From the NCBI GenBank assembly GCA_049666725.1, contig JBATHK010000022.1, forward strand, positions 12,947-76,946: a stretch of DNA of 64,000 bases, read 5' to 3'. Below the pieces are notes generated by a model. That model ran no database searches. It was not told where the DNA came from and saw only the letters and a list, made by a program, of their open reading frames with translations. A program made the position numbers and the translations under genes. The DNA comes from Woeseiaceae bacterium (GTDB lineage Bacteria; Pseudomonadota; Gammaproteobacteria; Steroidobacterales; Woeseiaceae). Positions 30,105 to 46,465 of this stretch are shown here, one piece after another; positions within the stretch are counted from its first letter, which is position 1; every line of letters begins with the position of its first letter.

Positions 30105-31457
30105 CTACCTCACCGCGAATGGCAGCAGGGTTTCAAGGTCGCGATTCAGCAACATATGCAGCCAGATGCTTAGCGCGTAACCCAGTGCGATCGCCGGCGT
30201 CCAGCGAAGGTGCGTGAAAAAAGTGTATTTGCCGCGCGCCTGTCCCATTAATGCGATGCCGGCGGCTGATCCGATTGAGAGGAGACTACCTCCCACGCCG
30301 GCAGTTAGCGTGACCAACAACCATTGCTGAACGTCCATCGCGGGGTTCATTTCCAGCACGGCGACCATGACCGGTATGTTATCGACGACGGCAGAAATCA
30401 GTCCTACGAGCACGTTTGCAACGGTTGGGCCAAGCTCTCCATAAAGGTACGCCGAGAGATGATCAAGGTAGCCGATGAACCCAAGGCCACCAACGCACAT
30501 GATGACTCCGAAGAAGAACAAGAGCGTATCCCACTCCACCCTCGCGACCTCACGAAAGCTGTCAAACGGCATCGTGTCGCCAACCTCGCCGTAATGTTCC
30601 CCGTTGTACGTTGTCTTGGCGTGCGTTTTTCTGAGGTAATAACCATAAAATTTGAGCGCCGCAAGGCCGGTCATCATGCCGAGAAAGGGCGGCAGGTGAA
30701 GAAAGTTATGAAACGACACAGCTGTGACTATAGTGCAAGCGAACAGAAACATGATTTGTCTTGCACCCCGCTTCAGGCTAACTGCATTATCCGGGCCGGA
30801 TGCCGATGGCAGGCCCTTTGGAACCGCAAGTGACATGATGGCAGCCGGCACGAGAAAATTGACAACGCTGGGCAGGAATAGTCGGAAAAAATACTCGAAA
30901 CCGATAACGCCCCGCTGCCAGACCATCAGCGTTGTTATGTCGCCAAAAGGACTGAACGCACCGCCGGCATTTGCTGCCACGACTATATTGATACAGGCGA
31001 GGCCGATAAAGCGGGGGTTCCCTTCACCAATGGCCAGTACAACGGCGCACATAACGAGCGCCGTCGTCAGGTTGTCGATCACCGGAGACAAAAAGAAACT
31101 CAAAATTCCGGTAATCCAGAACATGGTACGGAAGGTGTACGAACGTCCTGCCAACCGGTCCCGTAGCGCTTTGAAAACGTTGCGCTCACTCATGGCATTG
31201 ACATAGGTCATCGCGGCCAGCAAGAACAGAAACAGCTGAGCAAATTCGGTCAGATATTCGTTGACAGCCTCTGCGGGGGCATGTGTCTGCTCAGTGCCAG
31301 CATACTGGTATGCGATCAGGCCCCAGATAATGCCGGCTGCGAGTATGACCGGCTTCGATTTCCGCAGATGCGTGAACTCCTCGGAAATCACGAGACTGTA
31401 GGCAGCCACGAACAATACTATTGCAGCAACACCCACCCAATCTGCAGTAAGATCCAT
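30105..31457 (-). CDS. nhaD: sodium:proton antiporter NhaD
   Basis: 450 aa, polytopic. The N-terminal LVISEEFTHLRKSKPV block and overall pattern resemble the NhaD/ArsB-superfamily antiporters. Confidence 0.8.
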   Translation of the reverse strand: MDLTADWVGVAAIVLFVAAYSLVISEEFTHLRKSKPVILAAGIIWGLIAYQYAGTEQTHAPAEAVNEYLTEFAQLFLFLLAAMTYVNAMSERNVFKALRDRLAGRSYTFRTMFWITGILSFFLSPVIDNLTTALVMCAVVLAIGEGNPRFIGLACINIVVAANAGGAFSPFGDITTLMVWQRGVIGFEYFFRLFLPSVVNFLVPAAIMSLAVPKGLPSASGPDNAVSLKRGARQIMFLFACTIVTAVSFHNFLHLPPFLGMMTGLAALKFYGYYLRKTHAKTTYNGEHYGEVGDTMPFDSFREVARVEWDTLLFFFGVIMCVGGLGFIGYLDHLSAYLYGELGPTVANVLVGLISAVVDNIPVMVAVLEMNPAMDVQQWLLVTLTAGVGGSLLSIGSAAGIALMGQARGKYTFFTHLRWTPAIALGYALSIWLHMLLNRDLETLLPFAVR

Positions 31458-31605
31458 TAAACCGTTACTCCATTAATTCTCAAGTACACTCTTATGTTCA
31501 TCGACACAACTGTCCCACGTTCGATAGCTTGTTGCGAGCCTTGGCGTCTTTCTTGCCAAATAATGCAATGAAATTTCCGATTTTTCGACAAGCTGACCTG
31601 GCGAA

Positions 31606-32829
31606 GTGACTCAGCACGTAATATTCGCCGCGCCCTTTTTCATGGACGCGACCGTGCGCTTCCTGCGCGGCGCCTGCCAGTTGCCGGATGTCGCGCTATC
31701 GGTCGTGAGCCAGGATCCTGCGGAGCAGCTGCCCGCAGACATTCGGGCCCGCATCGCCGGGCACTGGCGCGTTGCCGACGCGCTAAACCCAAACCAGTTG
31801 ATAGAGGCCGCGCAGCAGCTGGAGGCCCGGCTCGGCAAAGCCGCTTGCTACCTCGCAGCGCTCGAACAATTGCAGGTGCCGCTGGCGCTTGCTCGGGAAG
31901 CGCTTGGCATCGACGGGCTGTCGTCCGCTGCCGCGAGGAACTTCCGCGACAAATCGCGCATGAAAGATGTCCTGCGCGGCGCGGGGGTTCCATGTGCACG
32001 TCACGCACTTGTGGGCGACCGTGCAGCCGCGGAGGCGTTCATACAGCGCGTCGGATTTCCGGTCGTGGTAAAGCCCCCCGCCGGCGCCGGTGGAAAAGGT
32101 ACTTTCAGGCTCGATCAGCCGGCGGACCTTGGCACCTGGTTGCAGCGTTTTCCACCCAATCCCGACCACCCCACCCTGTTCGAGGAATTCGTGTGCGGCA
32201 CGGAACACTCATTCGACAGCGTATTCATTGATGGTCGACCGGTCTGGCATTCGATATCCCGATACATGCCGTCGCCCCTGGAGGTGCTGGAGAACGACTG
32301 GATACAGTGGTGCGTCATGCTGCCGCGCGACATTAGCGGCGCCGAGTTCGATCCCATTCGCGAAGCGGGATATACCGCTATCGAGGCGCTGGGACTGCAG
32401 ACCGGGCTTAGCCACATGGAGTGGTTTCGGCTGGCGAACGGCAGCATCGCCATTTCCGAGGTCGGCGCGCGTCCGCCTGGCGCACAGTTTTCCTCCTTGT
32501 TGTCGTATGCTCACGACATCGATTTTTACAGGGCATGGCCACGCCTGATGGTATTTGGGGAATTTGAACGGCCGGAGCGCCGTTACGCGGCCGGTGCGGC
32601 GTACATACGTGGCCAGGGACAGGGCCGCATTCGCAGCATCAGCGGAGTTGACGAAGTGCAGCGCCGTTTCGGCTCGATCGTTGTCGAAGCCAAGCTACCG
32701 CACGAGGGCCAGCCTCCGAGCGACAGCTACGAAGGCGATGGCTACATCATCGTACGCCACCCCGATACCGACGTCGTGCAGGATGCGCTGCAGCAGATCG
32801 TCAGCACGATTCGCGTGGAGCTGCGATGA
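31606..32829 (+). CDS. ATP-grasp domain ligase (paralogue 1 of 3)
   Basis: GTG start. FRDKSRMKDVL, GFPVVVKPPAGAGGKGTFRL, EEFVCGTEHSFD and HMEWFR...ISEVGARPPGAQF are ATP-grasp blocks, collinear with the products of 36979..38196 and 39752..40972. Confidence 0.8.
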   Translation: MTQHVIFAAPFFMDATVRFLRGACQLPDVALSVVSQDPAEQLPADIRARIAGHWRVADALNPNQLIEAAQQLEARLGKAACYLAALEQLQVPLALAREALGIDGLSSAAARNFRDKSRMKDVLRGAGVPCARHALVGDRAAAEAFIQRVGFPVVVKPPAGAGGKGTFRLDQPADLGTWLQRFPPNPDHPTLFEEFVCGTEHSFDSVFIDGRPVWHSISRYMPSPLEVLENDWIQWCVMLPRDISGAEFDPIREAGYTAIEALGLQTGLSHMEWFRLANGSIAISEVGARPPGAQFSSLLSYAHDIDFYRAWPRLMVFGEFERPERRYAAGAAYIRGQGQGRIRSISGVDEVQRRFGSIVVEAKLPHEGQPPSDSYEGDGYIIVRHPDTDVVQDALQQIVSTIRVELR

Positions 32830-33770
32830 ATCCGGAAGCGCCTTTACGATTGCTGCTCGGCCCGCAGCGCCCCGTTGTGAATTTTGACAGTGCTTTGGCG
32901 CGCTCCGGGATTGGCGACGGACCGATCGGCGTGATATCGGCCGCGTGGCAGGAAGCCGAAGGCGATATCGATGGCATGCAACGCCTGGTAAAGAATCCTT
33001 TGTCGGATCTGCGCCTTTATCAGAAGACTGAAGCGCTGTTTGCCGCAGACCCGCGTCTTCATGAAGCTTATCGGCAGCGGCAGGAACGCCTCAAAGAGCA
33101 GCAGCGCTTCTACAGCCTTCGACTGCGGCAGCTGAAGATCGCCGCACGGGTAATTCTGCGCGCCGAGGGTGAGCCGTCCGTCGTGGCGGCAGAGCGCCGG
33201 CATGCCATTTCGCAACTGCGTGCACTCGACCAGCACCACCTCCGCCAGGTGGACAAGATTCATGCCCGCTTCGACAAGGATTTTAACGTTGATTGTCACG
33301 ATCTCCTCGCCGATCAAACCGCCGCGCTTGTCGAAGCGCTGTCACAATTCGAGACCTTGCTGATCACCGGCGGCAATGTCGTCGTTCTGATGAACCGGCT
33401 GCGCCTGTTCGGACTTGGCCCACAGCTTAAGCGAAAGAACATCGTTGCCTGGTCAGCGGGCGCGATGGTGCTGGCTGATCGCATCGTGTTATTCCATGAG
33501 CGCATGCCGCAGGGTCGGCGTGACGCCGAAATTATGTGCCGTGGCATGGCAATCGTGCCGGACACCGTGCTGCTGCCGAACGCAAGCGGACGGCTGAAGC
33601 TAGGGGACTCGCTGCGCATCGGCCTGTTTGATCGCCGCTTTTCGCCGGCCAATTGTGTGACTCTCGAAAACGGCTCATACCTGCTGTTCGAGGGTGAAAC
33701 CTTGCGCGACTCCGAGGCGGCCAGGCGCATGACACGAAGCGGAAAATTCAAACGGATGCGCGCGGCATGA
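32826..33770 (+). CDS. S51 (dipeptidase E/cyanophycinase)-like peptidase-fold protein, uncertain
   Basis: LLITGGNVVVLMNRLRLFG and IVAWSAGAMVL resemble the GGN and G-x-S-A-G-A nucleophile motifs of family S51. There is a long charged insertion between the first strand and GGN. ATGA overlaps on both sides. Confidence 0.5.
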   Translation: MNPEAPLRLLLGPQRPVVNFDSALARSGIGDGPIGVISAAWQEAEGDIDGMQRLVKNPLSDLRLYQKTEALFAADPRLHEAYRQRQERLKEQQRFYSLRLRQLKIAARVILRAEGEPSVVAAERRHAISQLRALDQHHLRQVDKIHARFDKDFNVDCHDLLADQTAALVEALSQFETLLITGGNVVVLMNRLRLFGLGPQLKRKNIVAWSAGAMVLADRIVLFHERMPQGRRDAEIMCRGMAIVPDTVLLPNASGRLKLGDSLRIGLFDRRFSPANCVTLENGSYLLFEGETLRDSEAARRMTRSGKFKRMRAA

Positions 33771-34903
33771 ATCCGGCACTACGCAAACTGCTCCGCAAAG
33801 CCGCTCCGGACGGGGCTGATATTGATGCGTTGATCCAGGAGCTGGATTTTCCACTCGTCGATGGCACGGACGTCACCTTCGTTTTTCGCGGCAAGGCCGA
33901 TGCCGTTTACCTGCGCTGCTGGATTGCCGGGCTCGATACCGCGCAGCCGTTCCAGGCATTGGCCGGCACCGACCTGTGGGCGACGACGATTGAGTTACCC
34001 AAAGGCTCTCGCATCGAGTACAAGTTCGAAGTTGCGTCTAACGGCAATAAGGAACTCATACTCGACCCCCTGAACGATGTTGTTGCGCGCGATCCGTTTG
34101 GCGCCAATTCAGTATGCCAGGCAGCCGGCTACGAGCGGCCGGAGTGGACGTTGCACGATCCGCAGGCGCGCGAGGGCTCTTTGCAAACTAGAAAAATTGA
34201 AAGCAGCGTGTTCCGGGAGTCTCGCGATATTGAGGTTTACCTTCCGGCAACGTTTCGCAAGAATCGTCGTTATCCGTTGCTTGTCGTTCACGATGGCGTC
34301 GACTACCTGCGCTATGCGGAACTCAAGATCGTGCTCGATAACCTCACGCACCGGCTGGAAATGCACCCCGTCATCGTTGCGTTGATCCAGTCGCCCGATC
34401 GACTCAAGGAGTACTCCGGCGATAACCGGCACGCGCGGTTCCTTGTCGAAGATCTTCTGCCTTTCATGAACGACACGTTTCCCTTAATGGATTCGGCTGA
34501 TTCACGTTGCATCATGGGCGCAAGCTTCGGCGGCGTTGCGGCGCTGCACGCGGCGTGGCGCTATCCGGAACATTTTGGTTCGCTGTTGCTGCAGTCAGGC
34601 TCGTTCGCGTTCAGCGATATCGGCCGGCATCAGCGCGGGCCGGTTTTCGATCCCGTCGTACGATTCATGAACGAGTTTCGTGAACATCCCGGGCGCCCGG
34701 CGGACCGGATATTCATGAGCTGCGGCATGTACGAGTCACTGATCTACGAAAACCGCTCGCTCGTGCCGCATCTGCAGTCGAAAGGTGTCGAGCTGCGCTT
34801 CGAGGAAGCGCGCGACGCACACAACTGGGAGAACTGGCGGGATCGACTGCGTATCGGTCTGTCGTGGGTACTGCCGGGTCCGGCGTGGATGGTGTACGAA
34901 TGA
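33767..34903 (+). CDS. esterase family protein (enterochelin-esterase/PF00756-like) with an N-terminal beta-sandwich domain
   Basis: The N-terminus (VTFVFRGKADAVYLRCWIAG...LWATTIELPKGSRIEYKFEV) looks like an E-set/CBM48-like domain. It is followed by YPLLVVHDG, the GxSxG motif IMGASFGGVAAL and a C-terminal H.W.NW block. Confidence 0.75.
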   Translation: MNPALRKLLRKAAPDGADIDALIQELDFPLVDGTDVTFVFRGKADAVYLRCWIAGLDTAQPFQALAGTDLWATTIELPKGSRIEYKFEVASNGNKELILDPLNDVVARDPFGANSVCQAAGYERPEWTLHDPQAREGSLQTRKIESSVFRESRDIEVYLPATFRKNRRYPLLVVHDGVDYLRYAELKIVLDNLTHRLEMHPVIVALIQSPDRLKEYSGDNRHARFLVEDLLPFMNDTFPLMDSADSRCIMGASFGGVAALHAAWRYPEHFGSLLLQSGSFAFSDIGRHQRGPVFDPVVRFMNEFREHPGRPADRIFMSCGMYESLIYENRSLVPHLQSKGVELRFEEARDAHNWENWRDRLRIGLSWVLPGPAWMVYE

Positions 34904-34999
34904 CCGCAATAAAACCGCGCTTCGTTCTTTGCTCACCTGCTATATTGATGAAGACGGCTTACCAGACTAATTGCTTTTTTATTCAAGGAAACGCAAACC

Positions 35000-36250
35000 G
35001 TGGCCAAAAAAACCAAACACATCGGCTTGTCTCTCGGCGCGGATATTTGCTGGCCCATTTGCTACGAGGGACTGCTCAAGGAACTCGACCTGGAAATACC
35101 GATTGGCAATGACACGCTGACATTTGAAGTCGAGCGCATGGCGATTGAACCGTTCAGCCTGACGCAACACTGCAAATACGATGTCGTCATCGACCGTTTG
35201 ACACACTGGTACCACACGTCGCGCGAGTGGATAAAGAAAGCCATCATTACTGACGACCTTTACGTGTTCAACAATCCGTGGTCGCTGCAGTCCATGGAAA
35301 AACAGACGACGTATTGCGCGATGATGCGGCTCGGCATGCCGGTGCCGGAAACCTGGATGATACCGCCCAAGTCGTACACGGAATCATCCGATCTGCAGCC
35401 GACGCTGAAACGTTACGCGAAGCTCTTTAATCTCGGCGACATTGGCGACAAGATCGGCTATCCGCTGTTTATGAAGCCCTACGACGGTGGCGCGTGGGTT
35501 GGCGTTACCGCGATCAAGGATCGCGAATCGCTGCTCAAAGCCTATAACGAGAGCGGCATACGAGTCATGAACCTGCAGAAAGGCATTGTGCCATTCGAGG
35601 GCTTCGTCCGCTGCGTCGGCCTCGGCGCGCAATGGCGCTGCGTCAACTACGATCCCGACGCGCCGCTGCACGATCGCTACCGCATGGAAACAGACTTTCT
35701 TTCGACAGAGGAAGAACAGCGCCTGATCGACATCACGATGGTGATCAACGCTTTTTTTGGCTGGGATTTCAATTCCTGCGAGTCCCTGCTGAGCAATGGC
35801 GTGTGGCATCCGATCGATTTTGCCAACGCCTGCCCCGATTCGCAGGTCACGTCGCTGCACTTTCACTTTCCGTGGCTGATCAAAGCGAATATTCGCTGGT
35901 CGATTTTCTGCGCCGCGACGGACCGAAACATGAAAACGGACCTGAACTGGCGCGCATATTTCGACATTGCGGACCAGGACAAGCCGTTCGATGACAAGCT
36001 CGCCGACTACGTGCGCATAGCGCGGCAGCACTTCGACATTGAAAATTTCGAGGAATTCTGCGAGCGGCACCTCGGGCATCTGGATGAAGTAGCGCACAGC
36101 TATTTCGCGACGGACGCCGTGCGTTGCGCAATCCGGGAGAAAGTCGAAGCGCTGTATCCAGATTATGAATACGACGAATTCACCGAGCTGTTCTGGAATC
36201 GCATCCAGCAGTGGCGGCAGCTGCAGGGCGGCGTCGGTCCCCTCGCATGA
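35000..36250 (+). CDS. ATP-grasp-like protein (RimK/glutathione-synthetase-like fold), uncertain
   Basis: GTG start after AAGGAA. YPLFMKPYDGGAWVGVTAIKDRESLLKAYNESG and GWDFNSCESLLSNGVWHPIDFAN resemble ATP-grasp central and C-terminal blocks. No closer family recognised. Confidence 0.55.
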   Translation: MAKKTKHIGLSLGADICWPICYEGLLKELDLEIPIGNDTLTFEVERMAIEPFSLTQHCKYDVVIDRLTHWYHTSREWIKKAIITDDLYVFNNPWSLQSMEKQTTYCAMMRLGMPVPETWMIPPKSYTESSDLQPTLKRYAKLFNLGDIGDKIGYPLFMKPYDGGAWVGVTAIKDRESLLKAYNESGIRVMNLQKGIVPFEGFVRCVGLGAQWRCVNYDPDAPLHDRYRMETDFLSTEEEQRLIDITMVINAFFGWDFNSCESLLSNGVWHPIDFANACPDSQVTSLHFHFPWLIKANIRWSIFCAATDRNMKTDLNWRAYFDIADQDKPFDDKLADYVRIARQHFDIENFEEFCERHLGHLDEVAHSYFATDAVRCAIREKVEALYPDYEYDEFTELFWNRIQQWRQLQGGVGPLA

Positions 36251-36972
36251 AGGACGTGTTTCGCTGGTATTCGCCGAACGTCGAACAGGAAGTACAGCTG
36301 GTGCGCTGGGGCACCTTCGGCACGCCGGTGCTGTTGTTTCCGACGGCGGGAGGCGATGCCGAGGAAGTCGAGCGTTTTCACCTGATCGGCGTTTTGCAGC
36401 CGCTGCTCGACGCCGGCCGCATCAAGGTTTATTCGACCGACAGTGTCGCCGGAAAAGCGTGGTTCTCCGGAGAGCATTCGGCCGAATACTGCTCGCGACT
36501 GCAGAACTGCTTCGATGCGTTCATCTATTCGGAGGTAACGGCCGCGATCCGCAGGGACTGCGCGTCAGAGGATATCGAAATCGTTACGGCTGGCGCATCG
36601 ATCGGCGCGTTTAACGCGTTGGCGACGGTGTGCCGCCACCCTGACGTCTACAGGCTCGCAATTGCCATGAGCGGCACCTTCGATCTTTCGAAATATCTCG
36701 AGGGTCGGATGAACCAGGACTTCTATTTCTCGTCACCGCTGCACTACCTGCCGCGCCTTGAAGGCCCGCAGCTCGAGATGTTGCAGAAGCGGCTCATTCT
36801 GCTACCCACCGGAGAAGGCGATTACGAAGACGTGGGCGAGTCGTGGCGCGTCGCACAGGTGCTCGGCGCGAAAGGCGTCCCCAACCGCGTCGACCTCTGG
36901 GGGGCGCACTATCACCACGACTGGCAAACGTGGCGCGACATGCTTCCCAAGTACCTGGCCGAGTACGCCTGA
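36247..36972 (+). CDS. esterase-fold (alpha/beta hydrolase) protein
   Basis: Start set at ATG 36247 (ATGA overlap with the previous stop). PVLLFPTAGGDAEE, the GxSxG motif TAGASIGAFNA, and a late HDW block. Confidence 0.62.
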   Translation: MKDVFRWYSPNVEQEVQLVRWGTFGTPVLLFPTAGGDAEEVERFHLIGVLQPLLDAGRIKVYSTDSVAGKAWFSGEHSAEYCSRLQNCFDAFIYSEVTAAIRRDCASEDIEIVTAGASIGAFNALATVCRHPDVYRLAIAMSGTFDLSKYLEGRMNQDFYFSSPLHYLPRLEGPQLEMLQKRLILLPTGEGDYEDVGESWRVAQVLGAKGVPNRVDLWGAHYHHDWQTWRDMLPKYLAEYA

Positions 36973-36978
36973 GCCGTT

Positions 36979-38196
36979 CTATTCGGCGTACATCTGCAGT
37001 TCCGAACCCACGGCGTCCGCCATCGCCATCGTGTCTTCAAGATCCGGGTGGCGCAGCATGATAAAGCCGTCAGAAACCAGCGTCTTCAGCCAGTCGCGGC
37101 GCGGAGTCCCCGGCGGCAGCAGCGTATTCCAGACAACGTGCTCGCCAAATCTCGCTTGCAGTGACTCGCTACCCTCGATGCGCGTAATACGCCCGACGCC
37201 GCGGGCACGCTTGAAAATTGTCGCCACGTTGTAGCGTCGCTCGAATTGTTCTTCCACGCGACCGTGGGTCACTGCCTGCCCCCAGGCCTTGAACACGTCG
37301 AAGTCACAGGCATATTTCATCTGGTCGACCTGGTGCGCGCCGGGAGGACGTCCGCCGATCTCGCCGAACACCACTTCGCCGTCCGACTTGCGGTACCACT
37401 CCATGTGGGTAAAACCCGTGTCGAACTTCAGGGCCTTGATGACATCGAAGCCCATTTGTATGCCGCCGACCAGGTCTTTGTTATCGACGTCCCTGAGTGC
37501 GATCACCTGCGGGCTGATCCACTCGTTGCTGCGCGCGATCAGCGGCCGGGGCCGGTACCAGGCGACATTGTAATAAGCGATCTCGCCGCCGACGGTAATC
37601 GTGTCGAAGGTATATTCCTCGCCGTCAACAAATTCCTCGACGCTGATGAGCGGCACGTGCCGCAGTCGCGGCAGCACGGCGCGCAGCTCTTCTCTCGACG
37701 TCACGCGGTAAGTATCCGCGGAGCCCGCGCCGTCGATGGGCTTGAGGATGACCGGAAAACCGATGTCTTCGACGGCAGTCCAGCATCCGGCGACGCTGTC
37801 GACAGCCGCATGGCGGGGCGTGCGGATGCCCGCTTTATCAAGCGCGACTTTCATGGCTTCCTTGTCGCGAAACAGTCGCGCGTGCTCGATGCCGAGACCG
37901 GGCACGCCAAAATGTTCCCGCAGCTCGGCCGCCAGCATGACGCCCGGCTCCCAGAGACATTCGATGCGCTCAATCTGGTGACCGCGCAGCTTCTCCGAGA
38001 GCTCCGCGATTACGCGCTGGCTGTCCCACAAAGACGAGACCTGGACGTACTCCGACAATGAGCGGCGCACGAGTTCCGGCAGCCCCCCGACATGTTGGTC
38101 GCCGACGCCATATACGCGCGCGCCGCTTGCCGCGAGCCCGCGCGCGAACTCGGGCATATCCGCCGGATAACCGGGAGAAATCATGAGGACATTCAT
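36979..38196 (-). CDS. ATP-grasp domain ligase (paralogue 2 of 3)
   Basis: FRDKEAMKVAL, GFPVILKPIDGAGSADTYRV, EEFVDGEEYTFD and HMEWYRKSDGEVVFGEIGGRPPGAHQ are collinear with the other two paralogues. Confidence 0.8.
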   Translation of the reverse strand: MNVLMISPGYPADMPEFARGLAASGARVYGVGDQHVGGLPELVRRSLSEYVQVSSLWDSQRVIAELSEKLRGHQIERIECLWEPGVMLAAELREHFGVPGLGIEHARLFRDKEAMKVALDKAGIRTPRHAAVDSVAGCWTAVEDIGFPVILKPIDGAGSADTYRVTSREELRAVLPRLRHVPLISVEEFVDGEEYTFDTITVGGEIAYYNVAWYRPRPLIARSNEWISPQVIALRDVDNKDLVGGIQMGFDVIKALKFDTGFTHMEWYRKSDGEVVFGEIGGRPPGAHQVDQMKYACDFDVFKAWGQAVTHGRVEEQFERRYNVATIFKRARGVGRITRIEGSESLQARFGEHVVWNTLLPPGTPRRDWLKTLVSDGFIMLRHPDLEDTMAMADAVGSELQMYAE

Positions 38197-38285
38197 CGTG
38201 CGCGCCTTCGGATGGAAATGAATGAATACAGCGTGCGCTGGTACACGTAGAATAGTACCTCAACACAATAACCGGTGGACCCGAA

Positions 38286-39755
38286 TTGGCGACCACGGAC
38301 AAACGGAAAATCTGCCTGGCGACGGCCGAGCTGGCGCCGCTGGCAAAGACAGGAGGCCTTGCCGACGTCAGCGCTGCACTCTCGGCCTATCTGCATGCCG
38401 AGGGACACGATGTTCGCGTGCTGATGCCGTTCTACTCGCAAATCAGGCGTGAGAATCTCAAGGTACAGCCCGTCAGCAACCTGCAGAACCTGACCATCAG
38501 CGTCGGTCTCTGGGATATCGAGTACTCGATCGACGTCGCGACCTTGCCGGCCAGCGGTCTCCCGGTCTTCTTGCTCCGCTGCCCGGCCCTTTACGACCGC
38601 CCGGGCATCTATTCCTCCGAGGCCGACGAGCACCTGCGGTTCATCGTCCTGTCCCGCGCTGCGATCGAGATGTGTCAGCGCATGAACTTTGCACCAGACA
38701 TCTTTCACTGCAATGACTGGCACACCGCGCTGATACCGCTGTTCCTGCGCACGATTTACTCCTGGGACAGCCTGTTCGCCAGGACCCGGTCAGTCATGAC
38801 GATCCACAACATCGGTTACCAGGGTGTGTTCGGCTCCCACATCGTCGGCGACCTGAGCCTTTACGGCGGCGAACATCTTCTGCACCAGGACGACCTCGCC
38901 CAGGGTCGCATCAATTTTTTGAAGACCGGTATCCTGCTGGCCGATGTGCTGACGACAGTCAGCCCGACCTACGCGCGCGAGATCCAGAGTCCTGAGTACG
39001 GTATGGGGCTCGACGGCTATCTTCGCGCCCGTAGCGATTCACTGATCGGCATTCTCAACGGTGTCGACTACGACGAGTGGAACCCGGAAACGGACGCGCT
39101 GATTCCACAGAATTTCACGAGTCGCGATCTCAGCGGCAAGACCGCCTGCAAGCTGGAACTGATGCGCGAACTCGGCCTCGCCGGAGGAGCAGACCAGCCC
39201 GTTATCGGATTTGTCAGCCGACTCGTCGGCCAGAAAGGCATCGACCTGATGGTGAGCGTCCTGCCGCGGCTCCTGGCGCGACGCAACTTTTCGCTGGCAT
39301 TGCTCGGCAGCGGCGAGCCGCACTTCGAACTGTTTTTTCAATCGTTGCAGCGAGCGGTGCGCAAGCGCGTCGGTTTCTACCGGGGCTACAACAACAAACT
39401 CGCTCACTGGATCGAGGCTGGCAGCGACATGTTCATGATGCCGTCCGCTTACGAGCCCTGCGGCCTTAATCAACTGTACAGCCTGAAGTACGGCACGGTA
39501 CCAATCGTTCGTGAAACAGGCGGGCTTGCCGATTCAGTACAGCAGGTTAACCGGGCTTCCGGAACGGGTACCGGTGTCCTGTTTCGTGACTACGACGAAA
39601 CTGGCTTCCGCTGGGCAATTTCGAGGGCACTCGATTTGTACGAAGACCAGCCGCTTTGGCGTAAGATCATGGCTAACGGCATGGCTATGGATTTTTCCTG
39701 GCAACAGCAGGGGGCGAAGTACGTGAAACTCTATCGATACTTGTCCGGCTCATGA
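38286..39755 (+). CDS. glgA: glycogen synthase GlgA (GT5, ADP-glucose type)
   Basis: ELAPLAKTGGLADV N-terminal motif, FHCNDWHT, HNIGYQG, SRLVGQKG and PSAYEPCGLNQLYSLKYGT. The first in-frame start is TTG 38286. Confidence 0.9.
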   Translation: MATTDKRKICLATAELAPLAKTGGLADVSAALSAYLHAEGHDVRVLMPFYSQIRRENLKVQPVSNLQNLTISVGLWDIEYSIDVATLPASGLPVFLLRCPALYDRPGIYSSEADEHLRFIVLSRAAIEMCQRMNFAPDIFHCNDWHTALIPLFLRTIYSWDSLFARTRSVMTIHNIGYQGVFGSHIVGDLSLYGGEHLLHQDDLAQGRINFLKTGILLADVLTTVSPTYAREIQSPEYGMGLDGYLRARSDSLIGILNGVDYDEWNPETDALIPQNFTSRDLSGKTACKLELMRELGLAGGADQPVIGFVSRLVGQKGIDLMVSVLPRLLARRNFSLALLGSGEPHFELFFQSLQRAVRKRVGFYRGYNNKLAHWIEAGSDMFMMPSAYEPCGLNQLYSLKYGTVPIVRETGGLADSVQQVNRASGTGTGVLFRDYDETGFRWAISRALDLYEDQPLWRKIMANGMAMDFSWQQQGAKYVKLYRYLSGS

Positions 39756-40972
39756 ACGTCATATTCGTCGAGCCGTCTTTTCCGCACAATCAACGCGAAT
39801 TCGTGCGCGCGCTGCACGCGGCTGGCGCCAATGTTATTGGTATCGGCGAGCGGCCGCTCGACTATCTCGACTCCGAAGTGAAAGGCTGGCTGCACGACTA
39901 CGTGCAGATCCGCTCGGTTGTTCACGAGCCATCCTTGCTTAAGGCCGTGCAGTACGTCCAGGAACAGCTTTGGGTCGATCGCCTGGAGGCGACAATCGAA
40001 GCTCATATCATGCCGACGGCAGCTGTTCGCGAGGCGACCGGCATTCCGGGAACCTCGACCAAGACCGCGTACCTGTGTCGCGACAAGCCGGCAATGAAGG
40101 AAGCCTTGCGCAAGGCCGGTATTTCCACCGCGCAGTCAACGCGTGCATCCACCCCGCAGGACGCCCGCGATTTCGCCGCAGCGGTCGGCTACCCGCTGAT
40201 CGTCAAACCGCCGGCCGGAGCCGGCGCATCGGGCACCTATAAAGTGCGGGATGACGACAGGCTGGAAAGCGTGATCAACGAGTCAGGACTCGCGGACGGC
40301 CATGCCGTGGCAATCGAGGAATTCATCGAAGGGCATGAAGGCTACATCGACACGCTGACCATCGACGGCAAGGTCCGGCACGAGTTCATCACGCACTATT
40401 ATCCGAATGTCCTCGAAGCCATGCGCGAGCGCTGGATCTCGCCACAGATGGTAACGACAAACCGCATCGACGCACCAGGATACGCCGAGGTACGCAAAAT
40501 GACGCGCGACGTCATCCGCATCCTGGAAATCGGCACGTCAGCGACGCACATGGAGTGGTTTTTCGGTCCGAAAGGCCTCAAGTTTTCCGAGATCGGCTGC
40601 CGTCCGCCCGGCGTCGGCCAGTGGGATGTATACAACGCCGCGAACGAATTCGATCTCTATTTCGAGTGGGCCTCGGCGATTGTAAACGGCGACACGCACA
40701 CGCGTCCCTCGCGTCGCTATGCCGCGGGCATGATCGCACTCAGACCCGACCGCGATGGTCGCATCACGGGCTATTCGGGAGCCAACCGCATTCACGAGCG
40801 CTACGGCGACTGTATTGTTGCGGCTCACCTTCCGGATCCGGGCACGCCGACACAGGCGGTCGAAGCGGGCTACATGGCGAACGCCTGGCTGCGCGTGCGT
40901 CATCCGGACTACGACCATTTGCGCGGCATCCTCGACGATATCGGCCAGACGCTGAAGGTGCACGCCGGATGA
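39752..40972 (+). CDS. ATP-grasp domain ligase (paralogue 3 of 3)
   Basis: CRDKPAMKEAL, GYPLIVKPPAGAGASGTYKV, EEFIEGHEGYID and HMEWFFGPKGLKFSEIGCRPPGVGQ. ATGA overlap with the glgA stop. Confidence 0.8.
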   Translation: MNVIFVEPSFPHNQREFVRALHAAGANVIGIGERPLDYLDSEVKGWLHDYVQIRSVVHEPSLLKAVQYVQEQLWVDRLEATIEAHIMPTAAVREATGIPGTSTKTAYLCRDKPAMKEALRKAGISTAQSTRASTPQDARDFAAAVGYPLIVKPPAGAGASGTYKVRDDDRLESVINESGLADGHAVAIEEFIEGHEGYIDTLTIDGKVRHEFITHYYPNVLEAMRERWISPQMVTTNRIDAPGYAEVRKMTRDVIRILEIGTSATHMEWFFGPKGLKFSEIGCRPPGVGQWDVYNAANEFDLYFEWASAIVNGDTHTRPSRRYAAGMIALRPDRDGRITGYSGANRIHERYGDCIVAAHLPDPGTPTQAVEAGYMANAWLRVRHPDYDHLRGILDDIGQTLKVHAG

Positions 40973-42516
40973 GCGGCACGGAATCAGAGGCCGGGCAGTT
41001 CAAAGACCTGCAGCGGCAGCTGAAAAAAGTCTGGCACGAATTTCAGGAAGATCCTTTATACGCGCACACCTCGGTCATCGTGCCTTCGATGACGGTGAAC
41101 CAGGAGGAGCTTTCGAAAGTAACCGGCGCCGCGTTTTATGAAGAGCGACTGATGTTCGCGCTGATCCGCTTGCGAAACCCGAATGCGCGACTGATCTATG
41201 TTACGAGCCAGCCGGTGCATCCGGACATTGTCGACTACTACCTGCAGCTGCTTGACAGCGTCTCGGCCAGTCACGCACGCAGGCGCCTGCACATGCTGTG
41301 CGTGTTTGACGCCAGCCCGCGCCCGCTGTCGGAAAAAATTCTCGAGCGGCCGCATCTGCTGAAGCGGCTGCGCAAAATCATTGGCAATACGGATCGCGCC
41401 TACCTGACCTGCTACAACTCTACCGTGCTCGAGCGGCAGCTCGCGCTGAGTCTCGGCATCCCGTTAAATGGTCTGGACCCTGAGCTGCTCAACTTTGGCA
41501 CAAAGTCCGGCAACCGCAAGGTCTTTGCGGAAGCGGGCGTGGATTATCCGGCCGGTTTCGAGGACCTGCGCAACGTTGACGATATCGTACGTTCCTTGCT
41601 GGCGCTCCGCGAGCAGCGCCCGGGGCTCAAACGCGCCGTTATAAAGATCAATGAAGGCTTTGGCGGCGAGGGCAACGCCGTCTTCAGCTATCCGGAGGGG
41701 ACCGTTGACGACAGCAGCGTGCGGCAGGCACTGCAAAAACTTTCGTGGCTGTCGGGTGTAGAAACCTACAGCAACTTCCTGCGCAAGTTCGATGAAATGG
41801 GTGGAATTGTCGAGGAGCTCATCGTCGCAACGGAGACGCGTTCACCGAGCGTGCAGATGCGCATTCTTCCTGACGGCAGCACCCACCTCGTCTCGAGTCA
41901 TGAGCAGGTGCTTGGCGGATCGACCGGGCAGGCCTATCTCGGCTGTCGTTTTCCGGCCGACGACGATTATCGCAAGACCTTGCTGGATCATGCCAAAAAG
42001 ATCGGCGCAGTGCTGAGCGAGCACGGCATCCTCGGACGTTTCGGCATCGATTTTTTCGCGTCGCGTAACAACGGTCGCTGGGCCACGCATGCTATCGAAA
42101 TCAACCTGCGCATGGGCGGCACGACTCCGCCGTTTCACGCGCTTGAATTTCTCACGGGCGGCGAACTGAACGACGACAGCGGACTTTTCGTGGCGCCGAA
42201 CGGCCAGGCGAAGTTCTACACCGCGACCGATAATCTGAAATCGCCTGCTTACCGCGGGCTGCTACCCGAAGACCTGTTCGAGATCATCTGGCAGCACGGC
42301 ATTGGTTTCCGGCATGCGACCGGCACGGGTGTGCTTTTTTACATGATTGGCGCTTTGTCGCAGTACGGCAAGCTGGGCGTGACCTGCATCGGCAACAGCC
42401 CCGAAGAAGCGCAGCAGCTGTTCAAGCGGACCGTCAAAATACTCGATGAGAGCACGGCCGGGAAAAGACAGGGCATTATCGCACCGATGTCTGACCGCTA
42501 CTTCGCAATGGAGTAG
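40969..42516 (+). CDS. PGM1-related peptide-ligase-like ATP-grasp protein
   Basis: Start set at ATG 40969 (ATGA overlap). VIVPSMTVNQEEL, FYEERLMFALIRLRNPNARLIYVTSQPV.PDIVDYYLQLL, HARRRL and GTKSGNRKVFAEAGV match my recollection of the PGM1-related family consensus. The listed upstream extension is a shadow of the previous gene. Confidence 0.6.
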   Translation: MSGTESEAGQFKDLQRQLKKVWHEFQEDPLYAHTSVIVPSMTVNQEELSKVTGAAFYEERLMFALIRLRNPNARLIYVTSQPVHPDIVDYYLQLLDSVSASHARRRLHMLCVFDASPRPLSEKILERPHLLKRLRKIIGNTDRAYLTCYNSTVLERQLALSLGIPLNGLDPELLNFGTKSGNRKVFAEAGVDYPAGFEDLRNVDDIVRSLLALREQRPGLKRAVIKINEGFGGEGNAVFSYPEGTVDDSSVRQALQKLSWLSGVETYSNFLRKFDEMGGIVEELIVATETRSPSVQMRILPDGSTHLVSSHEQVLGGSTGQAYLGCRFPADDDYRKTLLDHAKKIGAVLSEHGILGRFGIDFFASRNNGRWATHAIEINLRMGGTTPPFHALEFLTGGELNDDSGLFVAPNGQAKFYTATDNLKSPAYRGLLPEDLFEIIWQHGIGFRHATGTGVLFYMIGALSQYGKLGVTCIGNSPEEAQQLFKRTVKILDESTAGKRQGIIAPMSDRYFAME

Positions 42517-42530
42517 CGACTGCGTTCGAG

Positions 42531-43604
42531 CTAAAACCACTTTCGGCTGCGGAAAAAAATAACCATACCGATCGCGATGGCGATCATTACAATCCAGACA
42601 AACAAGTAGCCCAGGGGCTGGCCAAGTTCCGGCATGCTGAGCGGTCCGGCGCCGCGATCGAAGTTCATTCCGTAGACGCCCACGATAAAAGTCAGCGGAA
42701 TGAAGATGGTTGCTATGACCGTCAGTACGCGCATCACATCGTTCATGCGGTTGCTGACGCTCGACAAATAAATTTCCAGCAGGCTGCCCGCCATGTCACG
42801 GTATGTTTCGAGCAGGTCTATGATCTGTATGGTGTGATCGTAGCAGTCGCGCAAATACAGGTGCGTATCCTTCTGGATTATTTCGTTGTCGTCCCTGATC
42901 AGTGAGTTGATCACCTCTCGCTGTGGCCAGAGGTTACGCCGCAGCAGGATGAGCTCCCGCCTGATCAGGTGAATCTGCGCCAGTGAATCGCGATCGGCAG
43001 ACTCCAGCACCTGCTCCTCGAGCTCTTCCAGCTGCAGACCAAATGTCTCCAGCAGCGGGAAAGCCCGGTCTATGACGGCATCCAGAAGGCCGTACATGAG
43101 GTAGTCAGCACCGCGCGTACGCATACGACCGCCGACCGCCTGTAGCCGCTTTACAATGGGCTCGAAAGGCTTGAAATCAGCTTCACAAAAGCTGATGACG
43201 TAGTTAGTGCCAACAAACAGGCTTACCTGGTGTACTTCAACAAGGCCATCGACCAACATTGGAAGGCTCATGACAACAAAGAGCTGGTCGGGGAAAGGTT
43301 CAACCTTGGGTCGCTGGCCGATGTTAAGCACGTCTTCGAGCGCCAGTGAATGCAGACTGAAGGACGCACCAAGCTCGCGCAACGCGGCTTCTGTCGGCTG
43401 GCCCTCTACATGCACCCACGTAACCGTATCGCGCTGCAGGTAAGGCTCACATTTTTCTACCGACGTGTCATCAAGGATAGAAACCTCCCTGGCGTCGTAA
43501 TCGATAAGCCGAATTCGCAGCGGCGCTGCGTCGGCCGCGCGCGCTTTCGTCAGCGTCCCGGGCGCCGTGCCAGCAGGATGATACTGTTTGTTAAATAGAG
43601 CCAT
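42531..43604 (-). CDS. corA: magnesium/cobalt transporter CorA
   Basis: 357 aa with the C-terminal YGMNF signature (GVYGMNFDRGAGPLSMPEL) and two terminal TM helices. Confidence 0.92.
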   Translation of the reverse strand: MALFNKQYHPAGTAPGTLTKARAADAAPLRIRLIDYDAREVSILDDTSVEKCEPYLQRDTVTWVHVEGQPTEAALRELGASFSLHSLALEDVLNIGQRPKVEPFPDQLFVVMSLPMLVDGLVEVHQVSLFVGTNYVISFCEADFKPFEPIVKRLQAVGGRMRTRGADYLMYGLLDAVIDRAFPLLETFGLQLEELEEQVLESADRDSLAQIHLIRRELILLRRNLWPQREVINSLIRDDNEIIQKDTHLYLRDCYDHTIQIIDLLETYRDMAGSLLEIYLSSVSNRMNDVMRVLTVIATIFIPLTFIVGVYGMNFDRGAGPLSMPELGQPLGYLFVWIVMIAIAIGMVIFFRSRKWF

Positions 43605-43720
43605 GGCGGCTGTCCTTTGCGCTCGGCAGCAATTACCAAGGTGCAGTGTTAATACATTTGCCGGATTGCGGCCGTCATGCTATCAGGGGCCAGCGTAGCT
43701 ATACAAACCAGTTCATTGCG

Positions 43721-44626
43721 ATGACAGCAAACGTGACACAAAATGCCCTTAAGCTCTCTGACCAGAAAATGACAGGTTTTCTGTCGCGACATAGGCTGCC
43801 CGCTGAGTTTCGGAGCATTGCAAAGCTGCACTACTTGCCGCTCGCGAAGCGACTGCGACAGATGCGCGACGGCAGGCGTCTGCTGCTGCTCGGCATCAAC
43901 GGCGCCCAGGGTACCGGCAAATCAACGCTCGCCGATTTTCTCTGGCTTGCGACAGAATCGATGTTCGATTGGAATGTCGCGGTTTTGTCGATCGACGACT
44001 TCTACTACACCCTTGCGGAGCGGAAAACCTTGGCCGAGGAAGTGCACCCGCTGCTAAGGACTCGTGGCGTGCCGGGCACGCATGACACCGATATGCTCGC
44101 CGGCTACCTTGAACGACTGCAGCGGCTTGGCAAAAGTGAGCACATGGCCTTGCCGCGATTCGACAAGGCTGTCGATGACCGTGCCGACGAGTCGCGATGG
44201 CCGGTCGTTAAGGGCCCTGTCGACCTCGTTATTCTCGAGGGGTGGTGTGTTGGCACCGTCGCGCAGTCCGATGCCGAACTGCAGCAACCGGTGAACGCCC
44301 TGGAACGTGACGAAGATCCTGACGGTACCTGGCGTCGCTATGTCAATGACCGGCTGAGAGCGAAATACGAACCGATTTTTAAAAAGCTCGATGCGCTGAT
44401 ATTCATTGGTGCCCCGAATTTCGATGCGATTCTCCGCTGGCGGCTGGAACAGGAAGAGAAACTCGCCGCGTCCGCGCCCTCGGGCTCGTCAGGCGTCATG
44501 AACAAGCAGCAGATCGTTCGGTTCATTCAGTTCTACGAACGACTGACGAGGGCCAACCTTGCCGCGCTCCCGGAAAGAGCCGACTTCGTTTTCAGACTGG
44601 ATGACTCGCACGCGATAGTTTCATGA
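43721..44626 (+). CDS. P-loop kinase (D-glycerate 3-kinase-like family)
   Basis: Start set at ATG 43721. Walker A GINGAQGTGKSTLA followed by SIDDFYYT and RGVPGTHD blocks. Confidence 0.65.
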   Translation: MTANVTQNALKLSDQKMTGFLSRHRLPAEFRSIAKLHYLPLAKRLRQMRDGRRLLLLGINGAQGTGKSTLADFLWLATESMFDWNVAVLSIDDFYYTLAERKTLAEEVHPLLRTRGVPGTHDTDMLAGYLERLQRLGKSEHMALPRFDKAVDDRADESRWPVVKGPVDLVILEGWCVGTVAQSDAELQQPVNALERDEDPDGTWRRYVNDRLRAKYEPIFKKLDALIFIGAPNFDAILRWRLEQEEKLAASAPSGSSGVMNKQQIVRFIQFYERLTRANLAALPERADFVFRLDDSHAIVS

Positions 44627-44686
44627 CGCGCATAGCCCGGTTGCGTCGTACAATGGGGCCTCCGTGTTCGACGAAAAGGTGACTCG

Positions 44687-45148
44687 ATGAACTTGCAAAG
44701 ACCCATTGCGGTTCTTGCTTGCGTTGTTTTAACAGCGTTGGCGCTGGCTAGCCCCGCCCCCGAGCGCGATTTAAAAAAAATAATGCAAGACCTGCGCAAT
44801 AACACCGTGGCAATGCTTGACGGTCTCCTGACGGATGACTTTGACGCCGTCGCTGTTGCCGCGAACGGTATTGCCCATCATCCAAGCATACCCGGTGCCC
44901 AGGTACAGCTGGTTGCCCAAGAACTGGGCGCCGAAATGCCGGCGTTCAAACAGCTCGATCAGCAGGTGCACGATCTGTCCCTGTCGATACTGGCCGCGGC
45001 CAAAGAACAGGATCCGGCCCGCGCCATTGCGGACTATCAGCACATGCTCAATGGCTGCCTGGCCTGCCACGCAGCTTATAAAGACCGCGTGTCAAAGGTT
45101 TTGAGTGCTGCCGATGAAACGGAAATGAAAAGCAACGATCCGTTGTGA
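44687..45148 (+). CDS. class II cytochrome c (cytochrome c-prime/c556-like), periplasmic
   Basis: Signal peptide, helical body and a single C-terminal heme motif, CLACH (NGCLACHAAYKDR), which is the class II arrangement. Confidence 0.72.
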   Translation: MNLQRPIAVLACVVLTALALASPAPERDLKKIMQDLRNNTVAMLDGLLTDDFDAVAVAANGIAHHPSIPGAQVQLVAQELGAEMPAFKQLDQQVHDLSLSILAAAKEQDPARAIADYQHMLNGCLACHAAYKDRVSKVLSAADETEMKSNDPL

Positions 45149-45157
45149 AAACCGCGC

Positions 45158-46465
45158 CTAAAGAAAGCGCATGAATATCGTTGCAATGCCGAGGAACGAG
45201 AAGAAACCCGCAACATCGGTCACGGTCGTGAGCAAAATCGACGAAGATGTAGCAGGATCCTGACCGAGGCGTGTCAGAATGATGGGAATGACCGCACCCG
45301 CGAAGCCGGCCGCGATCATTGCCAGGACCATCGAGGCCGCGATGACGCCAACCAGCGCGAGAGAGCCGCTCCAGAAATAGACTCCCAGCCCGCAGGTGAT
45401 GGCGATGCCGATGCCGTTCATGAAGCCGGCCAGCACTTCCTTGCGCATGACGCGCAGCCACTGCTTAACCGTGATCTCTCGCAAAGCAAGACCGCGCATG
45501 GTCACTGCCAACGCCTGCGCGCCGGCGTTGCCCGACTGGCCCGCGACCACGGGTAACAAAACGGCCAGGGCCGTGACCTGTGCAATCGTGCTTTCGAATA
45601 TGCCGACGACGGCCGCTGCAAGAAATGCGGTCAGCAGGTTGACCTGCAGCCACGGCATGCGTTTTTTCACGGTGAATACCGGGCTGGATAACGCCCGCTC
45701 GTCCTTGCTAGCACCAACCATCGTTTGCATGTCGACCGACGCCTGCTGCTGCATGGTCTTCGCAAGCCGATCATGTGTCACGGCACCGAGAAACACGCCG
45801 TCCAGATCGACGACCGGGATGTCGAGTACCTTGTGAGTTTCAAACGCCGCCGTAATTTCCTCGAGCGGATCTACCGGGCGCAGGGCGACGCTCAAAGGCT
45901 CTTCCAGTTCGCCCAGCGTCGTATGCGGGAACGCCAACGCCAGCTGCTGCAATGCTACTTTGCCGATGAGCTTGTGTTCGTTGTCGACGAGAAAAAGGCT
46001 GCGCGCCGTTTTCATTTTCTGCTTGCGCAGCTGTTTCAAAACCTGCTCGACAGTCATCGTGCGCCGGTAGGTGGCGACGCCGACGTCCATCAGCCGACCC
46101 GCCGTATTTGGCGGGAACGACATCATCAACTCGAGGTCCTCGCGTATCATCGGTTCGAGTCGCGCAATGCGCTGCTCGCGCTCCTCCTCAGACATACACC
46201 CAAGGATGCGCACGGCCTGTGGCGGCGGCAGCTCCTCCAGCAGTCGGTCCGTGAGCGCGTCCGGCATTTCCCGCATCAGCATTGCTGCCCGGTCCGGCAG
46301 CAAACGGCGCCAGACCGGCGTCAGAATTTTCGCCGGCTGCCGCGCCGCGGCCTCCGCCGCACTGCTGATACTGATTGATTCAATTTCGCGCGCCGCATCG
46401 AGTGGATACTCGACGAAAAACTGCCGATTCATGGCATCGGCAACGCGCAGCAGGTCAACGCTCAT
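45158..46465 (-). CDS. mgtE: magnesium transporter MgtE (second full-length copy)
   Basis: MgtE_N, a CBS pair and the TM domain with LLPVVAGQSGNAGAQALAVTMRGL and ILLTTVTDVAGFFSFLG. Confidence 0.9.
   Translation of the reverse strand: MSVDLLRVADAMNRQFFVEYPLDAAREIESISISSAAEAAARQPAKILTPVWRRLLPDRAAMLMREMPDALTDRLLEELPPPQAVRILGCMSEEEREQRIARLEPMIREDLELMMSFPPNTAGRLMDVGVATYRRTMTVEQVLKQLRKQKMKTARSLFLVDNEHKLIGKVALQQLALAFPHTTLGELEEPLSVALRPVDPLEEITAAFETHKVLDIPVVDLDGVFLGAVTHDRLAKTMQQQASVDMQTMVGASKDERALSSPVFTVKKRMPWLQVNLLTAFLAAAVVGIFESTIAQVTALAVLLPVVAGQSGNAGAQALAVTMRGLALREITVKQWLRVMRKEVLAGFMNGIGIAITCGLGVYFWSGSLALVGVIAASMVLAMIAAGFAGAVIPIILTRLGQDPATSSSILLTTVTDVAGFFSFLGIATIFMRFL

Follow-up and report, generated by a model that had tools for sequence, protein, structure and literature searches.

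What would a bacterium assemble, and later take apart, with five ATP-dependent ligases, three hydrolases and a glycogen synthase encoded side by side? The question is raised by nine tightly packed genes (g1 to g9, positions 31606-42516) in a stretch of 64,000 nucleotides, here called the window, from a Woeseiaceae bacterium (assembly GCA_049666725.1, contig JBATHK010000022.1, positions 12,947 to 76,946 of the forward strand). Woeseiaceae are among the most abundant marine-sediment bacteria worldwide. A first-pass annotation of the window had read these genes as an island of ATP-grasp ligases, an S51-like peptidase and two esterase-fold proteins around an embedded glgA. All nine open reading frames (ORFs) were found with the coordinates and strands given to them, and the family calls for their products were upheld by Pfam and curated profile searches, PDB sequence searches and AlphaFold models compared with Foldseek. 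The gene system is real, strongly conserved and uncharacterised, and the literature searched (the Iyer/Aravind 2009 amidoligase survey lying outside it) held no description of this gene combination. New here are its minimal core (g4 plus two esterases, with or without an S51-like protein), its spread across phyla and its tight integration with glycogen genes.

We scanned one genome per GTDB species with g2 as the anchor, searched for all nine proteins by tblastn and obtained 76 loci, nearly all from Woeseiaceae or unclassified Gammaproteobacteria metagenome-assembled genomes (MAGs), with a few labelled Halieaceae, Lysobacterales, Myxococcales or Acidobacteriota; MAGs of Woeseia sp. (L027, L028, L037 and L042) are among the carriers. 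The expectation that the nine genes co-occur elsewhere was borne out by these 76 species-level genomes and by many metagenome contigs: the identical nine-gene order was seen in 20 loci from different species, and eight genes were present in 12 more. Among the 44 loci with sufficient flanking sequence, again from different species, g4 was present in 43, g3 in 42, g8 in 40, g1, g5 and glgA in 38 each, g6 in 37 and g9 in 24. Family-wide identity is 70-85% for the ligases and esterases, and conservation at this level suggests that the cluster probably has a core physiological role. The 4-nt gene overlaps recur as well (g2-g3 in 82/90 loci, g4-g5 in 54/95, g1-g2 in 41/58 and glgA-g8 in 40/55). Flanking genes vary by genome, and insertions occur only between g5 and g6, which divides the cluster into two modules, g1-g5 and g6/glgA-g8-g9. 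The inserted genes are unrelated and not conserved (a TonB/TPR/metallo-beta-lactamase set, GAF, PagP, an AI-2E transporter, FGE-sulfatase, a kinase and an aldehyde dehydrogenase), and the flanks of three distant loci (L072, L075 and L076) gave no functional hint. The word island does not apply in a compositional sense, since the GC content of the cluster (0.555-0.611) is the same as that of its flanks; the cluster is conserved lineage-wide, with flanking genes that differ between genomes. These results define the nine genes as one conserved metabolic unit, in an arrangement far beyond chance.

A metagenome scan anchored on distant g4 homologues, combined with tblastn, defined three further clades (B, C and D). 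Clade B, in which g4 is 55-65% identical and which includes Planctomycetota MAGs, keeps g2-g3-g4-g5 and often g1, g6, g8 and glgA in differing orders. In two of its loci (L106 and L112), reverse-oriented g8 and glgA precede g1, g6, g2, g3, g4 and g5; in another (L137), a reverse-oriented g6 precedes g1, glgA, g8, g2, g3, g4 and g5; and three others (L148, L151 and L155) differ again. Throughout the rearranged Planctomycetota-type and other metagenome contigs, glgA usually still adjoins g8. In clade C (g4 about 40% identical), comprising Actinobacteria including cultured Kribbella and Ca. Phosphoribacter-type contigs, the set is limited to g3-like, g5-like and g4 genes, accompanied in some cases by an MFS transporter. 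Clade D (g4 32-36% identical) carries a larger S51 protein directly upstream of g4, homologous to g2 including its helical insert (E = 6e-15). The invariant core is the RimK-like g4 with its dedicated hydrolases g3, g5 and often g2, and the L-amino-acid ligase (LAL) paralogues, g9 and glgA form an expansion of it. The idea of five ligases as the conserved heart therefore fell, g1, g6 and g9 being variably present. The build-and-breakdown logic proposed for the locus survived in part, in that the pairing of ligase and hydrolase is conserved even at 30% identity in other phyla, around a core narrower than five ligases.

The most widely distributed core gene is g4, with more than 7,000 related database proteins in 1,222 clusters at 50% identity, and a tblastn search of a plasmid collection with g4 gave no match. 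The cluster gives context to large families of 'hypothetical protein' among these relatives, with members in Kribbella and in wastewater Ca. Phosphoribacter. Several neighbourhoods of g4 homologues deserve mention in their own right. In Kribbella italica (L168, 7017-11236), an MFS_1 transporter adjoins the g3-like/g5-like/g4 triad, and a contig from activated sludge (L170, 6761-11266; its relatives carry the label Ca. Phosphoribacter) has an EntS-like MFS_3 adjoining the triad, with a GH38 mannosidase nearby. Unrelated bacteria share a four-gene module (L080, 4771-7991, and L081-L083, of which L081 spans 6768-11230) of a HEAT-repeat protein, a DUF3806 protein, a large S51-like protein (464-486 aa) and a g4-like ATP-grasp protein (32-36% identical), with no esterase or glg gene. 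A single locus (L085, 4118-7837) has a g4 homologue (41%) two genes from an opposite-strand bacterial MATCAP gene of the tubulin tyrosine carboxypeptidase family, a pairing that recalls the eukaryotic ligase/carboxypeptidase cycle. GCS2 plus CBS, AstE/AspA and M20 genes are occasional neighbours. One ORF (P0382, 616 aa) encodes the C-terminal portion of a PF00756 esterase together with a g4 domain, and in one cluster at 90% identity, esterases of 248 aa are grouped with g4 proteins of 415-421 aa; genuine fusions of esterase and ligase, or errors of gene calling, may account for these cases. In a clade C locus (L119), a stop codon separates g5 and g4, leaving two genes.

How is the cluster tied to glycogen? 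Glg and Mal proteins of E. coli served as tblastn queries against all loci, and the matches were set beside the extracted gene coordinates. In the window, this search found glgA as the sole glg gene. Elsewhere the linkage is far richer: one locus (L043) reads malQ, glgC, glgP, glgX, g1-g5, g6, glgA, g8 and glgB, and in three species (L039, L041 and L043), the start of glgB follows g8 by about 45 nt, so that the order is glgA-g8-glgB. In another genome (L020), malQ starts 22 nt after g9; in three others (L056, L059 and L061), glgX, glgP, glgB and glgC lie immediately upstream of the cluster; glgC is near it in L049 and L106, glgX in L142 and a pullulanase gene in L065. In clade C, the g3-g5-g4 triad of L119 (g4 40% identical) stands beside glgB, pep2 (maltokinase) and treS of the GlgE pathway; a DUF5995 gene (9134-9934) lies between the two groups. 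Moreover, g8 adjoins glgA in several different gene orders. As the linkage recurs over different junctions, different gene orders and two alpha-glucan pathways, we read it as functional. The description of an embedded glgA was correct as far as it went, and it understated the case, given that the cluster lies inside full glg loci in several genomes.

The gene at the centre of this linkage, g7 (38286-39755, + strand), scored 536.5 bits against TIGR02095 (cut-off 328.45) and 464.9 bits against NF001899 (cut-off 459), with the KTGGL motif present in AKTGGLADV; its product is accordingly a canonical ADP-glucose glycogen synthase, GlgA, of family GT5. Three ligases, g1 (31606-32829, + strand, 407 aa), g6 (36979-38196, - strand, divergent from glgA) and g8 (39752-40972, + strand, the ligase tied most closely to glgA), are mutually 31-35% identical paralogues. 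The g1 product matches Pfam ATP-grasp, and LAL_C2 at 27.4 bits, slightly below the cut-off of 29.4; its nearest PDB sequences are LALs (30vh, RizA 4wd3 and BL00235, 3vot). The g6 product matches Pfam ATP-grasp families, with RizA 4wd3 as the nearest PDB sequence (E = 7.5e-17), and the g8 product matches ATP-grasp and CPSase_L_D2, with RizA (E = 1.2e-15) and BacD nearest. Across the three, matches to solved LALs fall between E = 1e-11 and 1e-17. Judged by sequence, g1, g6 and g8 belong to the LAL family and may form dipeptides. The accessory gene g9 (40969-42516, + strand) encodes a predicted ATP-grasp amide ligase with matches to PGM1_C (48 bits, cut-off 22.5) and ATP-grasp_IQCH (83 bits). Its closest relative is BesA (structure 8yi6, E = 3.7e-48), and it reached 169 bits against the BesA equivalog NF042917 (cut-off 750), a score that places it as a putative member of the BesA/PGM1 family and not as a BesA orthologue.

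No housekeeping orthologue emerged for any of the five ligases, in keeping with the earlier reading: against housekeeping equivalogs such as PurK, PurT, Ddl, GshB and carbamoyl-phosphate synthase, they scored 20-70 bits, with cut-offs of 240-1000. Cyanophycin synthetase CphA1 was tried and rejected, as the best matches (30-38 bits, cut-offs 850-877) covered the ATP-grasp core only and the Mur-ligase-like domain was found in 0/9 products; the statement that this is not CphA-type cyanophycin synthesis holds, there being no N-G-M multidomain enzyme.

The core ligase g4 (35000-36250, + strand) had no Pfam family above threshold and matched neither TIGR00768 (rimK_fam) nor PF08443. Its AlphaFold model (predicted local distance difference test, pLDDT, 78.5) matched RimK, Ddl and ArgX/LysX in Foldseek with probability 1.0; against RimK-type folds the E value was 1e-9, with template-modelling (TM) scores of 0.42-0.48 (query-normalised) and 0.55-0.65 (target-normalised). 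A C-terminal helical domain adds about 120 residues relative to RimK. The predicted ATP/Mg residues K159, E261, D273 and N276 do not vary among homologues as distant as 30% identity. The label RimK/GshB-like was a fair one in view of the structural match to RimK, Ddl and ArgX; going by the model, g4 may work like RimK, yet it is not a RimK family member by sequence. A graspetide (microviridin-type) cluster of ribosomally synthesised and post-translationally modified peptides was also considered and rejected: there is no conserved small ORF, and the AMdnB macrocyclase is only a weak structural match of g4, at rank 50.

The two most constant partners of g4 are candidate esterases. The g3 product (33767-34903, + strand) combines an N-terminal Ig-like/E-set beta-sandwich with a CE1-type alpha/beta hydrolase domain (PF00756, 86.4 bits, cut-off 22), with weak matches to Enterochelin_N and CBM_20. 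Foldseek comparison of its model (pLDDT 76) returned Fes (TM 0.62-0.65, 24% identity) and CBM48-CE1 feruloyl/acetyl-xylan esterases, and S253, H352 and E323 are invariant across clades. The smaller g5 product (36247-36972, + strand, 241 aa; its start overlaps the g4 stop) matched PF00756 at 36.9 bits (cut-off 22), and a profile search of the PDB returned the CE1 esterases 6ne9 and 7b5v, the PS1 mycoloyltransferase and Ag85; its G-x-S118-x-G and H224-D225-W226 motifs are invariant. With scores above the cut-off and the catalytic Ser and His invariant across clades, g3 and g5 are assigned to the PF00756/CE1-type serine esterases. The solved relatives recovered for the two act on esters or thioesters (Fes, CBM48-CE1 esterases, PS1, Ag85 and S-formylglutathione hydrolases), the exceptions being the weakest sequence matches (E > 0.004), to prolyl and glutamyl endopeptidases. 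We know of no peptidase member of PF00756/CE1. Because the solved relatives are nearly all ester- or thioester-acting and the family has no known peptidase, the product of the cluster would be expected to hold ester bonds. Enterochelin esterase Fes itself was rejected as the identity of g3, which scored 112 bits against the Fes equivalog NF007758 (cut-off 222) in a cluster without ent/fep-type genes.

The remaining hydrolase, g2 (32826-33770, + strand), is a predicted S51-like protein of the class-I glutamine-amidotransferase fold with a helical insert of about 100 residues. It matched PF03575 (Peptidase_S51) at 29.1 bits (cut-off 23.9), and two of its motifs, TGGN and WSAGAM, have aligned counterparts in PepE and in the S51 peptidase Lmo0363; W209, S210, A211, G212, A213 and M214, aligned to the S51 nucleophile, are each invariant in 13 homologues. 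The score and the G-x-S-A-G-A elbow with its Ser nucleophile place g2 in S51. At residue 252, the window has Asn (LPNAS), and other Woeseiaceae have Asp, where Planctomycetota-type, Myxococcales and large-S51 homologues (clades B and D) keep the His of a 'PHA' motif. The NPHF motif of E. coli PepE aligns a few residues upstream of 'PHA', so its equivalence to PepE His157 is our own reading of the alignment. No conserved Glu of g2 aligns with the PepE catalytic Glu, and an alternative His224 (motif LFHE/D) is conserved only in the closer clades A and B; by alignment, g2 of the window lacks the complete Ser-His-Glu triad of S51. With 40-60% identity, g2 also has the lowest conservation in the cluster. 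The changed His and the low conservation make the catalytic status of g2 uncertain, and it may be a pseudo-enzyme or use an altered mechanism. The earlier family call stands by score and by the retained Ser, and the cyanophycinase-like peptidase role attached to it is in doubt, the canonical His having been replaced.

The layout of the locus agrees with translational coupling within its blocks, as first described: all five 4-nt ATGA stop/start overlaps were found (at 32826, 33767, 36247, 39752 and 40969). The other junctions are gaps of 96 nt (g3-g4), 6 nt (g5-g6, convergent) and 89 nt (g6-glgA, divergent, 38197-38285), the last a presumed bidirectional promoter, judging from the layout. These gaps leave no space for a precursor-peptide gene, the remaining junctions being overlaps, and the absence of such a gene was confirmed, as was that of a regulator, transporter or non-ribosomal peptide synthetase (NRPS) within the nine genes. 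Over positions 31300-42700, an Rfam search (E up to 1) found no riboswitch or other RNA, a sigma-70-like promoter scan found 0 sites (3.8 +/- 2.3 in shuffled sequence), and terminator-like hairpins were no different in frequency from shuffled sequence; the promoter and terminator results are thus uninformative. None of the nine proteins matched the PADLOC models of anti-phage defence, and inspection of the sequences showed no signal peptide in any of them. The cluster is flanked by a CitMHS/NhaD-type permease and a Na/Ca exchanger upstream and by CorA downstream, ion-transport genes that lie outside it and are common only to close relatives. Directly 3' of the cluster (42531-49505) are genes for CorA, MgtE, an MgtE_N/CBS protein, an MscS-type channel and an MFS/TLC transporter. 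Farther upstream, the window holds a MerR regulator, an amine oxidase-like flavoprotein, a methyltransferase and an EamA transporter (21529-29059) beside photolyase/cryptochrome-related genes (DPRP with FAD_binding_7 at 27581-29059 and FAD_binding_7 at 22686-23945), a light-related repair/sensing set that is notable for a sediment bacterium.

What, then, might the nine genes make? We tentatively favour, at somewhat less than even confidence, a unit tied to alpha-glucan (glycogen) metabolism, in which the ligases ester-link amino acids or short peptides to the glucan and the esterases remove them. This reading draws directly on the gene identities, the intact catalytic residues (except in g2), the co-occurrence, the translational coupling and the repeated glg linkage; from these we infer what the substrates are, an ester bond to glucan and a role in physiology. 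The genetics suggest the glucan made by GlgA as the nearest hydroxyl-rich substrate, and VanA and the graspetide macrocyclases show that ester formation is within the reach of ATP-grasp enzymes. One module (g2-g3-g4-g5) would comprise the RimK-like ligase bracketed by two CE1/PF00756 esterases together with the S51-like hydrolase, and the other (glgA-g8, with or without g9, plus the paralogues g1 and g6) would bring together the glycogen synthase and, through translational coupling, LAL-type and BesA-type ligases. The ligases would activate amino-acid carboxylates as acyl phosphates, and the acyl groups would be joined to each other and, by ester bonds, to glucose hydroxyls, the acceptor being either the glucan under elongation by GlgA or malto-oligosaccharides. 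The product would be a reversibly aminoacylated or peptidylated glycogen, from which ester-linked groups would be released by g5 and by g3, whose beta-sandwich is CBM48-like, and the peptide part of which g2 would trim or recycle. Such a polymer may serve as a combined carbon/nitrogen reserve or control glycogen solubility and turnover. We regard as possible, though more doubtful, the specific form of this proposal, namely that the glycogen of Woeseiaceae and of cluster-bearing Planctomycetota covalently and reversibly carries ester-linked amino acids or short peptides, added by GlgA-associated ATP-grasp ligases and removed by CE1-type esterases.

Several observations weigh against glucan decoration. 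To our knowledge, glycogen esterified or otherwise decorated with amino acids has no precedent. The most distant g4 homologues pair with peptidases (large S51, MATCAP and AstE/AspA) and have no glg genes nearby, and these partners point to an amide or peptide product for g4. Two distant full clusters (L072, and L076 from Myxococcales) have no adjacent glgA, and the Kribbella and Ca. Phosphoribacter-type triads adjoin MFS transporters, one of them EntS-like, and no glg genes. Much of the glg linkage comes from one family, so that its cases are not phylogenetically independent. In Foldseek, g3 is slightly more like Fes, a depsipeptide esterase, than like the CBM48-CE1 enzymes, and its beta-sandwich is therefore no proof of glucan binding; the modelled fold would fit glucan binding and Fes-like substrate binding alike and cannot discriminate between them. 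Prokaryotic alpha-glucan enzymes were reviewed in 2024, and the first 300,000 characters of that review (of 445,374) are silent on ATP-grasp enzymes, esterases and acylation.

The distant peptidase partners and the glgA-free clusters fit a second explanation, which we consider possible but doubtful: a free non-ribosomal peptide, poly-amino-acid reserve or compatible solute that the ligases build and the hydrolases mobilise, with glycogen genes merely co-regulated. Its product would be soluble or granular, either a di- or oligopeptide or a RimK-type homopolymer. The LAL-, RimK- and BesA-like character of the ligases is what this explanation would predict, S51-like g2 and g4 are still paired at about 30% identity in other phyla, and the further neighbours of g4 homologues (MATCAP, AstE/AspA, M20 and GCS2) are all amide-bond enzymes. 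It accounts less well for the two PF00756/CE1 esterases as the most constant partners of g4 and for the loss of the canonical S51 His in the lineage of the window, and the ATGA coupling of glgA to g8, together with the position of g8 between glgA and glgB, is tighter than co-regulation needs.

A reversible tailing of a protein C-terminus with amino acids, in the style of RimK and tubulin ligases, with GlgA as one conceivable target and the hydrolases acting as carboxypeptidases, appears unlikely. RimK and ArgX/LysX, the nearest folds to g4, do extend protein C-termini, and the 41%-identical homologue two genes from MATCAP would suit such a cycle; that neighbourhood was found once only, however, the cluster has no conserved gene for a carrier or target, the three LAL paralogues look like ligases of free amino acids, and the esterases are not carboxypeptidases.

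Less credible still is a siderophore-like or other exported depsipeptide, in which ATP-grasp enzymes would replace NRPS or NRPS-independent siderophore synthetases and the ester-linked product, once taken up, would be opened by Fes-like esterases. In its favour, g3 has Fes as its best structural match and the actinobacterial triads have their adjacent MFS genes, but the 76 Woeseiaceae-type loci contain no transporter, TonB receptor, catechol/hydroxamate biosynthesis gene or iron-regulated feature, the products lack signal peptides, and the glg linkage would be left unexplained. Coincidental adjacency of unrelated housekeeping genes can hardly be believed: each enzyme superfamily is common, yet gene order, 4-nt overlaps and co-occurrence persist from family to family, from phylum to phylum and through rearrangements, and no ligase reaches a housekeeping equivalog cut-off.

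Either of the two better-placed explanations would be of interest. If the ligases act on glucan, the cluster would yield a new modified glycogen and a new reaction class for LAL-type enzymes, and the decorated glucan would be a previously unknown storage polymer coupling carbon and nitrogen reserves. If the product is a free peptide reserve, the genes would represent a storage-compound or osmolyte pathway not seen before, a counterpart of cyanophycin with direct ties to glycogen metabolism.

Comparison with known systems places the cluster among several of them. The LALs BacD/YwfE, RizA and BL00235 are nearest in sequence to g1, g6 and g8 and have the LAL_C2 domain in common with them. Unlike LAL clusters for dipeptide antibiotics, the locus has no warhead-biosynthesis or export genes, carries three paralogues per cluster with g8 coupled to glgA, and is kept family-wide at 70-85% identity, which suggests primary metabolism. 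BesA, the L-propargylglycine--L-glutamate ligase, and the PGM1 peptide ligase share with g9 the same pre-ATP-grasp, ATP-grasp and PGM1_C architecture, whereas no bes or pheganomycin pathway genes surround g9. RimK (the poly-alpha-L-glutamate ligase of ribosomal protein S6) and ArgX/LysX offer the best fold match to g4, with the ATP/Mg residues kept, but g4 is only about 15% identical to them, has no S6 or LysW-like partner and is constantly accompanied by esterases. Likewise, g3 has the two-domain architecture of Fes and the CBM48-CE1 esterases with their Ser-His machinery, and g5 has the same catalytic domain as these enzymes and Ag85/PS1, although both proteins appear cytoplasmic, lie in no siderophore or xylan context and have ATP-grasp ligases and glycogen genes as partners. 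The cyanophycin system (CphA1 with CphB/CphE) is alike in the cytoplasmic make-and-break logic of an ATP-grasp ligase and an S51-family hydrolase; it differs in that the present cluster has five separate ligases, two CE1-type esterases, a glg embedding and an S51-like protein without the canonical His. As conceptual analogues of reversible glucan decoration, we consider GWD/PWD with SEX4 or laforin, which govern starch and glycogen phosphorylation, and the acylated mycobacterial methylglucose lipopolysaccharides (MGLP). In decorated glucans of this kind, an ATP-dependent enzyme adds a group to a cytoplasmic alpha-glucan and a CBM-bearing hydrolase removes it, the same logic as would apply here; the known decorations are phosphate, or short acyl groups from acyl-CoA, and the enzyme families are unrelated to those of the cluster.

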